From assembly GCF_054482525.1 (NCBI RefSeq), contig NZ_CM137006.1: a DNA stretch of 64,000 nt; one strand, 5' to 3'. Positions 15,634 through 42,119 of the stretch are shown in pieces (the first letter of the stretch is position 1; every line of letters starts with the position of its first letter). Made by a program: the position numbers and the translations under genes. The notes under the pieces were generated by a model. That model saw only the letters and a program-made list of their open reading frames with translations, searched no databases and was not told the origin of the DNA.

Positions 15634-15670
15634 AAACACCATTGCCTGCGCAATGGTGTTTTTGTTTTTA
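15634..15670 (+). terminator. intrinsic terminator of bdm-sra
   Basis: stem AAACACCATTG / CAATGGTGTTT followed by T-run. Confidence 0.6.
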
Positions 15671-19032: not shown

Positions 19033-19062
19033 AAAAAATGGCGCTTCTTAAAGCGCCATTTT
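19033..19062. terminator. bidirectional intrinsic terminator between convergent yddM and fdnI
   Basis: AAAAAAAATGGCGCTTCTTAAAGCGCCATTTT: perfect stem flanked by A-run and T-run. Confidence 0.65.
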
Positions 19063-39986: not shown

Positions 39987-40054
39987 AGAATCATATGCAG
40001 CAACCAAGTTGCTTAAGCAATGTTTCAATATGAGTTAAAAGCATACTTTATTTA

Positions 40055-40252
40055 CGATTGTATATTTTTAGTGAAGATTAATTTATCCTCACCAATATCA
40101 TAGTAATTGCGTATTATAGCTTCATTGATAAAGCCCTGTTTTGTATAAAATGCGCGGGTGGCACTAAAATCGACATAGCTGGAGGTCTCTACTAAAAGTA
40201 GTCTTGCGTGATTGGGACAGGTCAAGAAAAAGCAGTTTTGCAGTTTTTTATT
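40055..40252 (-). pseudogene. 3' remnant of a GNAT-family acetyltransferase (no start codon, about 65 codons)
   Basis: hand translation of minus strand: ...LLLVETSSYVDFSATRAFYTKQGFINEAIIRNYYDIGEDKLIFTKNIQS* resembles a GNAT C-terminal motif; bounded upstream by an in-frame stop. Confidence 0.4.
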
Positions 40253-40637
40253 TCAGGGCACAGTTGCGAAAATTGAATACCGTATGGACTAATGTGAGAA
40301 AATTCCGAGGTATGACTGTTTTGATATAGTGGACAATCAAGCGTCTCGAATTAACAATGAATTTCAGGTGCCAAGCCTTACAATTTGTAGCATGACGGAT
40401 ATAGGACAACATTAGGAAATCGGACAGAAAATTCATTATAATAAAATGACAACTTATCTCTTTCTCTCACGTTCTGTGAAATTTCACAAAAGTATAAACT
40501 GAGCCAATATGCCTTTATATATAAAAAATACTCATGTTTATTATTATCGGAAAAAGCCAAGATTTTGTCAAGGCCATCAAAAATATCTTTATCATGATCT
40601 ATATGTACTCTTGATGATTTCACAATACAGGGAAAGA

Positions 40638-41774
40638 TTACGAAAGCCCGCTCCCCGCAAGGACTGACGCGAGATAGTTTCTGTCCATGGCTGCTTTTCG
40701 CATCTTACGTCTTAACCCTGCCTTGAATACCTTATCATTCGTCAAAATATTAATAGCGATGTGCCGTATCCCTGAAAATAATTCTGCGGCGTTTCCTCTT
40801 CTTATTTTGCAGTCGTCTTCATTCATTACCACGTCCAGACGCCAGTGCAGCTTATTCTCTACGTGCCAGTGATTTCGGATCGCTGTGGCGAACTTTTCTG
40901 CGGTTAAATCAGCAGAACTGATATAATATCTGACCGTCATTTCTGGCTCTTTCTTTTGTTCTGCTATTATTGACCGAAAAGAGACTGCCACGCATAATTT
41001 CTTCAGTCCTTTCCATTCAAACGTGAAATCAATAAGTTCATCAGGGACATCGCAAACAATATGAAGACGGATTTCTTCTCTGCCGTGACTCTTTTCACTT
41101 ATTTCGTAACTGTCATGCTCTGGATTATTTAATTCTTTCAGCGGAAATTTTCCCTCAAAGGCTTTATTTAGTCGTCCCTGATTTCCTTTTACAGCGAATA
41201 AATAATCACCGCCCTGTTTTTGTATCTTCTCTGCAATATCTTTCTGGCAACCCATCGCATCAGTTGTGATGATTTTTCCTTTAATATCCAGCATCTTAAG
41301 AAGTTCAGGGATAGCTGTAATTTCATTGGATTTCTCATCCGTCCTGATCTGTCCGATGACCAGACTGTGCATTGTTGAGAACGCACTAATGACATGAATC
41401 GCTCCCTTGCGGCGACTCTTGTCATAAGAGTGCCGGAGTGTTTTTCCATCAATTGAGATGACGTCTTTATCATCTGAAGAATGACAATCACGCATCCAGT
41501 TAATAAAGCACTCGTGAAATTTTGCAGGACTGATACAGGATACAACTCTGGCGATGGTATCGTGAACAGGAATACCATTTTCAAAATCACCATATTGTTT
41601 TAAAAAATCGAGATGTGTTTCCCCAAAATCCTCTATACCTTCCCAACCTTCTGCACCCGAAATAACGGCACAAATAGTCAACAGTAGAATATCCGATAAT
41701 TTATGTTCCACTTTCCAGGCTTGTCTGTAATCGGGGATAATAGAAATATGTTCCATCATTTTTTTAAGTTCCAT
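40638..41774 (-). mobile_element. ISAs1-family (H-repeat-associated) transposase gene; element ends not resolved
   Basis: 378 aa translation matches remembered H-repeat/YdcC-like transposases ([37 protein letters not shown]...); lies directly downstream of an Rhs element. Confidence 0.8.
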
Positions 41775-42119
41775 TTTGTTCTCCTTAATTATGTAAGGAG
41801 TATTTGATCATGTATAAGCAATAAAAACAGCTTTAGGTAATGAGGAATATCTCAATTTTTAAACATAAAATGCGAATTATTTAGTACAGAAAGTGAACTT
41901 CTGATGATCTTTCCCTGCCCATTGGGTTCATTAAGATCAAGAATAATGGGAATATGCTCAAGAAGACTTTGAATGTTCACCAGACGTCCTTTTCTAATAT
42001 ATTTAATTATTTGGCGATTGAATTTTAATCAAATCAACAAGGTAAAACCAAGATTAAAGTTGTGATGATAATCACAACTTTAATGATCTTCCCCTGATTC
42101 CTCCAGTCCTTTTATTTGG

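Follow-up and report, generated by a model that had tools for sequence, protein, structure and literature searches.

The spacer that separates an Rhs toxin–immunity pair from the transposase gene ydcC (positions 41775–42119 of the 64,000-nucleotide stretch of Escherichia coli DNA analysed here, referred to as the window) is, as judged from its sequence, very probably a composite of two ISAs1-family left ends lying in the same orientation 3' of the toxin–immunity pair. One is the left end of an intact ISEc1-type element; the other belongs to a truncated ISEc26-like element, hereafter the stub. This stretch carries no RefSeq annotation. Its limits had been placed correctly in the initial annotation, with the transposase ATG at 41774 and the stop codon of the immunity gene at 42120–42122. 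Stacked ISAs1/H-repeat arrangements of this kind are long known and ordinary. New here are a divergent ISEc26-like lineage, which so far appears only as a stub, and the preservation of the left-end hairpin of this clade via compensatory changes.

The gene order on the minus strand of the window is vgrG, Rhs protein, small immunity ORF, spacer, and ydcC. The Rhs protein (42491–46645, minus strand) has a Tox-WTIP toxin domain at its C-terminus. The Pfam scan of the immunity ORF (42120–42464/42527, minus strand) gave no match. The 23 bp that follow the immunity stop codon and precede the stub IRL (42097–42119) are native DNA, and this flank is the same in 16/16 metagenome copies. The locus corresponds to the RhsE/T6SS locus of E. 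coli, adjoining narZYWV-yddE-nhoA-yddH, where the order in strain K-12 is rhsE-ydcD-yncI-ydcC-pptA. E. coli strain 1190 displays 100% identity to the window region over the segments compared. In the RefSeq annotation of that strain, the Rhs core gene and vgrG are called frameshifted pseudogenes; the Rhs gene of the window (42491–46660 and upstream) forms a 1384-aa ORF counted from the first ATG. The Rhs effector may be inactive.

Two copies of a TGATCTT(T/C)CCCTG motif about 180 bp apart had been reported for the spacer, and both are there. Copy 1 (TGATCTTTCCCTG) occupies 41905–41917 and copy 2 (TGATCTTCCCCTG) 42084–42096; their starts are 179 bp apart, and they are alike at 13/14 nucleotides once the preceding A is included, (A)TGATCTT.... 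With at most one mismatch, the motif has four matches in the window versus 0.13 expected. An inverted third copy at 40628–40640, overlooked by the initial annotation, identifies the motif as an IS terminal inverted repeat. The earlier suggestion of an insertion-sequence end was therefore sound in that each copy is the IRL of an ISAs1-family element. It did not recognise that two different elements are involved: the palindrome located beside copy 2 and copy 2 itself belong to the truncated ISEc26-like element, not to the adjoining ydcC element.

Alignment with the ends of ISAs1 elements, proposed earlier as a check, places copy 2 on the ISEc1 terminus with 13/14 matches from base 1 of the IS. 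The local alignment of the outer spacer with the whole ISEc1 reached a score of 27 versus 22.3 ± 2.5 for shuffled sequences, which is unremarkable; the match carries weight because it hits the exact terminus, not because of its alignment score. Copy 2 also fits the ISAs1 IRL consensus CAGGG(C/A)AA(G/A)NNCA, seen in ~45 ISAs1 elements from many phyla. The form CAGGG(C/A)AA..CA precedes ISAs1 transposase genes in Halomonas, Vibrio, Shewanella, cyanobacteria, Chloroflexi, and others.

The ISEc1-type element, a member of the H-repeat group, is intact, carries ydcC, and extends over 1290 bp (40628–41917, minus strand), as delimited by its inverted repeats and by copy-number boundaries. Its IRL, CAGGGAAAGATCAT (41904–41917, minus strand), is motif copy 1 and was placed by repeat and strain alignments. 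The IRR, CAGGGAAAGATTA (40628–40640, listed on the plus strand), was found as a minus-strand motif match with one mismatch and overlaps the transposase stop codon. The terminal inverted repeats spanning these 1290 bp are of the form CAGGGAAAGAT(C/T)A, and an inverted repeat pairs 40609–40638 with 41907–41936. The transposase YdcC (40638–41774, minus strand; 378 aa), listed in RefSeq as ydcC and as a transposase of the ISAs1 family, contains the Pfam domains DDE_Tnp_1_assoc (PF13808; 1.7e-33) and DDE_Tnp_1 (PF01609; 1.1e-29). The 5' untranslated region (41775–41903, minus strand) includes a promoter-like site at 41816–41788 and the ribosome-binding site AAGGAG. The segment 40628–41917 thus displays the hallmarks of ISAs1 elements, namely both DDE_Tnp_1 domains, a length of ~1.2–1.5 kb, CAGGG inverted repeats of ~14–22 bp, and repetition in the genome.

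The two parts of the spacer differ strongly in their distribution. Of 5426 complete E. coli genomes, 5328 contain spacer positions 1–143 (41775–41917), with a median of five places and with matches ending at ~41917; the outer 202 bp (41918–42119) are single-copy and present in only 375 E. coli genomes. Five strains agree up to ...TCTTTCCCTG and differ from the next base onwards, and matches of the right-hand flank end at 40627. The inverted repeats, copy numbers, and divergence points together define 40628–41917 as an intact ISEc1-type element, the classical H-repeat, with copy 1 as its IRL. No target-site duplication (8–10 bp) flanks 40628–41917, where ...TTCACAATA stands against CCCATTGGG.... 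Since the right flank is a truncated gene, this is read as the result of later rearrangement and not as non-membership.

The second left end is a 5' stub of ~163 nt (41934–42096, minus strand), revealed by full-length alignment to related left ends. Read on the minus strand from 42096, it has the structure CAGGGGAAGATCAT-TAAAGTTGTGAT-TATC-ATCACAACTTTAAT-CTTGGTTTTACC...AAAAGGACGTCTG-GTG-AACATTCAAAGTCTTCTTGAGCATATT...; the yncI element of K-12 starts with CAGGGCAAGATCAT-GAAAATTGTGAT-GTAA-ATCACGATTTTCAT-CTTTGCTTTAACG...AAAAGGACGCCAG-GTG-AGTATTCAAAGTTTGCTTGATTATATT. The stub IRL, CAGGGGAAGATCAT (42083–42096, minus strand), is motif copy 2 and was identified by its 13/14 agreement with the ISEc1 IRL and by the family-wide consensus. 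It is followed by the subterminal hairpin of the ISEc26 clade, which is the palindrome (42053–42084, minus strand; element nt 13–44) and has a counterpart at the same position in relatives, and by a T-rich tail 3' of the hairpin, CTTGGTTTTACCT (42040–42052, minus strand), which was flagged together with the hairpin by a terminator-like scan. The ribosome-binding site AAGGA (41991–41987) precedes a GTG start and the first ~15 transposase codons, VNIQSLLEHIPIILDL (41934–41980, minus strand), which align with MDIQSFLDHISIIPDL in the metagenome locus L154 and with VSIQSLLDYISVIPDI in ISEc26.

The homology is collinear over ~163 nt and includes the IRL, the hairpin, a TGATYAAAAT box, the ribosome-binding site, the start codon, and ~15 codons. 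The identity values are 79.8% (L154), 66.7% (ISEc26 of O157), 66.9% (L119), and 68.9% (the remnant in strain PS10-3). Features of the ISEc26 clade present in the stub are an outer IRL of the form CAGGGnAAGATCAT and the 14-bp hairpin at nt 13–44, then leader, ribosome-binding site, and start codon. Homology to L154, ISEc26, and L119 ends at ~41934 with ...GATCT, and the ISEc1 IRL is reached after a 16-bp filler (41918–41933). A full transposase gene and an IRR are absent from the stub, in which homology ends after ~15 codons, so that it is a remnant and not an element. Taken together, the boundary and homology evidence identifies the two motif copies as left ends belonging to two different ISAs1 elements in a head-to-tail stack. 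A 42-aa chimeric ORF (41852–41980, minus strand) uses the ribosome-binding site and GTG of the stub and continues past the junction into the leader of ISEc1; it probably has no significance.

In RefSeq, the relative of the stub in K-12 and O157 is named "ISAs1-like element ISEc26 family transposase". An intact ISEc26 from O157:H7 F6667 encodes a 390-aa transposase and has the IRL CAGGGCAAGATCATGAAA and the IRR CAGGGCAAGAGCATGAAT; its 14-bp hairpin, at nt 13–44, is perfect. The pattern scan of metagenomes yielded 70 loci with seven sequence variants, 16 of these loci being the same E. coli locus. L154, a single metagenome locus, represents a third lineage with an intact transposase N-terminus; it is the nearest relative of the stub (80% identity) and is itself 3'-truncated. 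No intact element of the window type was found in the metagenome search, which returned only the same-locus remnant (16 contigs) and L154.

In the arrangement proposed here, ISEc1 would have arrived in or beside an older ISEc26-like element. Later rearrangement at the ISEc1 ends, through adjacent deletion or recombination between ISEc1 copies as candidate routes, would have trimmed the older element and erased any target-site duplication. As it stands, the older element ends after ~163 nt and is cut off, past the 16-bp filler, by the ISEc1 IRL. The right flank of ISEc1 is the 3' part (ORF 40378–40623, minus strand) of a gene for a 211-aa hypothetical protein, which is intact in strain AGR6137. 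In place of pptA, the gene that lies 3' of ydcC in K-12 and further strains, the window has the truncated hypothetical gene (39987–40627).

The DNA that meets the ISEc1 IRL varies by strain: this window has a 163-nt stub and 16 nt of filler; EC6030, UK_Dog, and the majority of the 375 genomes have a 147-nt stub followed by 88 nt of other DNA; TUM13936 retains just 15 nt of the IRL, with ~265 nt of other DNA after them; K-12 has 1210 nt of ISEc26; and O55:H7 CB9615 has three consecutive IRL copies. Depending on the strain, the older IRL is cut after 13, 15, 147, 163, or 1210 nt, and after 34 nt in an unrelated metagenome-assembled genome (MAG). The missing target-site duplication, the truncated right flank, and the strain-variable left flank together mark the ISEc1 borders as rearrangement joints, which fit adjacent deletions or recombination between ISEc1 copies. 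An Rhs cassette recombination joint, another of the earlier suggestions, can be retained in the loose sense that the DNA outside the ISEc1 IRL varies by strain and ISEc1 lacks a target-site duplication; the repeats themselves are IS ends and do not constitute a dedicated recombination site.

Several of these and related loci have features of their own. In CB9615 (L159:1500–1730), the order is CAGGGAAAGATCA, CAGGGAAAGATCATC, an unannotated GC-rich stretch of ~190 bp containing two hairpins, and TAGGGAAAGATCATC... of ydcC; the GC-rich segment of ~190–260 bp is present in 2564 E. coli genomes. TUM13936 (L003:2741–3015) has the immunity gene of the window with its 23-nt flank, the first 15 nt of the stub IRL, and then the GC-rich segment of CB9615. 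With only 15 nt of the IRL left, the break falls within the IRL. Strain PS10-3 (L004:2816–3228) has, at the same site of the chromosome, an M23 peptidase and a 167-aa ORF as T6SS cargo; these are followed by a decayed homologue of the window stub, 69% identical and without the hairpin, and by a truncated ISAs1 transposase. Comparison of its cargo with that of the window indicates that unrelated effector cassettes share a downstream IS scar. In the MAG Proteobacteria bacterium OH_SBlB_131 (L032:880–960), ISEc1-like left ends are stacked with their IRLs 34 nt apart (CAGGGAAAGATCATCAGAAGTACACTTTTTGTAC / CAGGGAAAGATCACG...). The small protein YncO annotated in K-12 (b4745; L006:6320–6505) is encoded antisense; from an ATG within the 3' arm of the ISEc26 hairpin, its reading frame runs outward across the IRL and enters the end of ydcD. 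The window stub has no YncO homologue because ATT occupies the position of the YncO start.

The palindrome at 42053–42084 consists of the arms ATTAAAGTTGTGAT and ATCACAACTTTAAT, which are 14 bp long and 100% complementary, and of a 4-nt loop, GATA. A perfect palindrome had been reported for exactly this position, although its size of 11 bp was too small; in the string given, the arms count 11 and 10 nt and the loop 5 nt, a small miscount. A recount for imperfect repeats, also called for earlier, confirmed that the arms are fully complementary. The repeats are real and not due to chance. Arms of at least 14 bp did not occur in 30 dinucleotide-preserving shuffles, and arms of at least 11 bp occurred on average 0.3 times per shuffle. 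This is the longest perfect inverted repeat of the whole 64-kb window, and the full 32-mer occurs once in the window versus 0.00 expected. Further perfect inverted repeats, with arms of 11–13 bp and loops of 4–9 nt, are located at 15634–15661, 19035–19062, 27584–27609, and 59592–59626. These four also exceed the shuffle expectation and are probably terminators.

The hairpin occupies the same position in ISEc26, K-12 yncI, L119, and L154, with lineages being 67–80% identical. Among six distinct ISEc26-clade left ends representing 3–4 lineages, 97.6% of the cells in the 14 hairpin pairs are paired, and four cells are G·U wobbles on the sense strand. Three pairs have changed on both sides: 15–42 (G-C/U-A), 19–38 (A-U/G-C), and 21–36 (U-A/C-G). 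Pairing falls to 30–49% if the partner columns are slid. The covariation score was reached by 11 of 500 column shuffles; with six sequences from 3–4 lineages the sample is small, so that this covariation is supportive, not conclusive. The RNA fold z-scores were –7.3 (window), –5.6 (ISEc26), and –4.2 (L154), versus +0.9 in the decayed PS10-3 remnant, in which the hairpin is lost.

Two broader structures were considered and rejected. A subterminal hairpin as a trait of the entire ISAs1 family is frequent but not general: over 37 non-redundant ISAs1 left ends, the mean z-score was –0.68 and 27% of the values were below –1.64. The hairpin is, therefore, specific to the ISEc26 clade. A longer stem, with the IRL paired to the CYTGGYTTTAC leader, appears in the minimum-free-energy folds of the window and L154, but is only 70.8% paired across the clade and lacks covariation.

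A terminator, the third of the earlier suggestions, is plausible as a function of the hairpin, which by origin is an internal part of the IS. On the minus strand, the sense strand of rhs, the immunity gene, and both transposases, the hairpin is picked out as terminator-like by the consensus scan. The match comprises 14 pairs, three of them G-C, and the tail CTTGGTTTTA; the ISEc26 homologue was not flagged in the same scan. In all three lineages, the inner 8-bp stem has an A-rich run on its 5' side and 4–5 T in the next 8 nt. The stem is AT-rich (3/14 G-C pairs), and the T-run starts 3–5 nt past the full stem. This succession of A-rich run, stem, and T-rich run is the layout of a weak two-way intrinsic terminator. 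We tentatively propose that the hairpin acts as such a terminator or as an insulator, a function modelled on its layout for which the odds are somewhat below even. It would insulate the transposase gene from transcripts that come in through the left end of the IS. In the stub, it would end the rhs-immunity transcript 36–80 nt past the immunity stop codon and shield ydcC. The single hit of the Rfam scan of 41400–42700, to a miRNA within the transposase gene, is a chance match (E = 0.08; 22.8 bits versus a gathering score of 73).

A different role for the palindrome, that of a symmetric binding site for a protein such as the N-terminal domain of the transposase or a host factor, which would control the transposase promoter or left-end activity without an RNA or terminator hairpin, is the main alternative, although rather unlikely. 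The perfect dyad and the paired changes on both half-sites suit a protein site equally well. Moreover, the dyad overlaps the inner part of the 18-bp inverted repeat of ISEc26 and occurs at the left end only, where the IRL carries a GATC site. However, the four sense-strand G·U/G·T wobbles would be A·C mismatches on the other strand, and the fold of the sense strand is more stable than that of the antisense strand (–25.3 versus –18.1 kcal/mol). On a small sample, the wobbles and the stability of the sense fold favour a single-strand structure. Also, the scan for sigma-70-like promoters was negative for the stub and for the left end of ISEc26, leaving the palindrome with no promoter-like site in its surroundings.

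The remaining alternatives concern the origin of the repeats. A native intrinsic terminator of the rhs-immunity operon, unrelated to any IS and lying near the motif by coincidence, would account for the scan match on the operon strand and for a hairpin that starts 36 nt past the immunity stop codon. Yet the hairpin is found at nt 13–44 of ISEc26-type elements at unrelated loci (such as the O157 copy by yafV, and L119 and L154, which have other flanks), in every case directly after the IRL and followed by the transposase leader, and TUM13936 keeps the immunity gene and the 23-nt flank while other DNA replaces the hairpin. This very unlikely explanation is already contradicted as to the origin of the palindrome. 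It is still less probable that the motif copies resulted from ISEc1 transposition, either as a target-site duplication or with copy 2 as an alternative outer end of a 1469-bp mobile unit (40628–42096). The 13/14 fit of copy 2 to the ISEc1 IRL implies that the ISEc1 transposase might recognise it, but a target-site duplication flanks both ends of an element and here both motif copies are on one side. Furthermore, inside copy 2 the sequence shows homology to leaders of the ISEc26 type rather than to target DNA, and 41918–42119 is single-copy and always at this locus in 375/375 carrier genomes, giving no sign of movement. The single-copy state of these outer 202 bp in every carrier genome led us to reject mobilisation by an alternative end as well as by a MITE. 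A miniature foldback (MITE-like) element, made from ISAs1 ends and comprising the IRL-like copy and the palindrome, is extremely improbable. On its left side, the palindrome has CAAGGTAAAACCAAG, which bears a faint likeness to an inverted IRL, but this stretch is the conserved CYTGGYTTTAMC leader that is also present in intact ISEc26-type elements; the outer helix pairs to the IRL at just 70.8% with no covariation, and no extra copies were found in the window search or in E. coli genomes.

Several known elements come close to the two left ends. ISEc26, a pseudogene (yncI) in K-12 and intact in O157:H7, shares with the stub the IRL start CAGGG.AAGATCAT, the 14-bp hairpin with a 4-nt loop at nt 13–44, the T-rich tail, the TGATYAAAAT box, AAGGACG, the start codon at nt ~115–117, and the N-terminus xxIQSLLxxI. 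In K-12 it lies, like the stub, just 3' of the immunity gene of an Rhs tip and just 5' of ISEc1/ydcC. The stub differs from ISEc26 in its sequence (66.7% identity over 163 nt), in the lack of a transposase and a right end, and in three swapped stem pairs; it also accompanies an Rhs toxin/immunity cassette different from that in K-12. The tandem H-repeats of the K-12 RhsE locus (ydcD-yncI-ydcC) have the same orientation and the same order of immunity gene, older ISAs1 element, ISEc1, and yddH-nhoA side. There, the older element (yncI, 3'-truncated) keeps 1210 bp instead of 163 nt, and pptA is present, whereas it is missing in the window.

The element at 40628–41917 resembles the 1.29-kb ISEc1/H-rpt elements (the ydcC, yhhI, ybfD, and ybfL class) in its length of 1290 bp, CAGGGAAAGAT inverted repeats, 378-aa DDE transposase, and multicopy occurrence in nearly all E. 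coli. It differs in lacking a target-site duplication here and in being bordered by truncated sequences on either side. H-rpt was reportedly described by Zhao and colleagues in 1993 and Hill and colleagues in 1994 as a 1291-bp, IS-like, Rhs-associated sequence that is often defective or tandem. According to PMC3032704, H-rpt is included in ISfinder even though no transposition of it has been observed.

Both IRLs (41904–41917 and 42083–42096) contain a GATC (Dam) site. In many ISAs1 elements (loci L016–L057), the transposase start is also closely preceded by a conserved box that contains GATC (TGATCAAAT, GATCGATTTGACGATC). By analogy with IS10/IS50, these sites hint at methylation-linked control. 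Read-through structures at the left ends of IS10 and IS50 shield the transposase gene from outside transcription. The stub hairpin resembles these devices as a stable structure between the outer end and the transposase start, which is predicted to be carried only by transcripts entering from outside. It differs from them in that it is known in ISAs1 from sequence alone and in one clade only.

H-repeat/ISAs1 elements are usually treated as inert passengers of Rhs loci. A more active part, in which they reshape Rhs loci by targeting resident left ends or by nested deletions from the IRL, and in which the leftover hairpin has been taken over as the terminator of the toxin–immunity genes, is conceivable but unlikely, with perhaps one chance in a few. 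If true, such reshaping would account for the series of stacked IRLs at this locus. For annotation, the previously unlabelled stretch can now be designated a truncated ISEc26-like ISAs1 left end abutting ISEc1, a result of little import beyond annotation itself. Within the Rhs locus, the stub marks the end of the mobile cassette of Rhs tip and immunity gene and helps to trace the exchange of Rhs/T6SS effector cassettes between E. coli strains. The hairpin conserved at ISEc26-clade left ends offers a small testable lead on the control or insulation of the transposase in these poorly studied elements.
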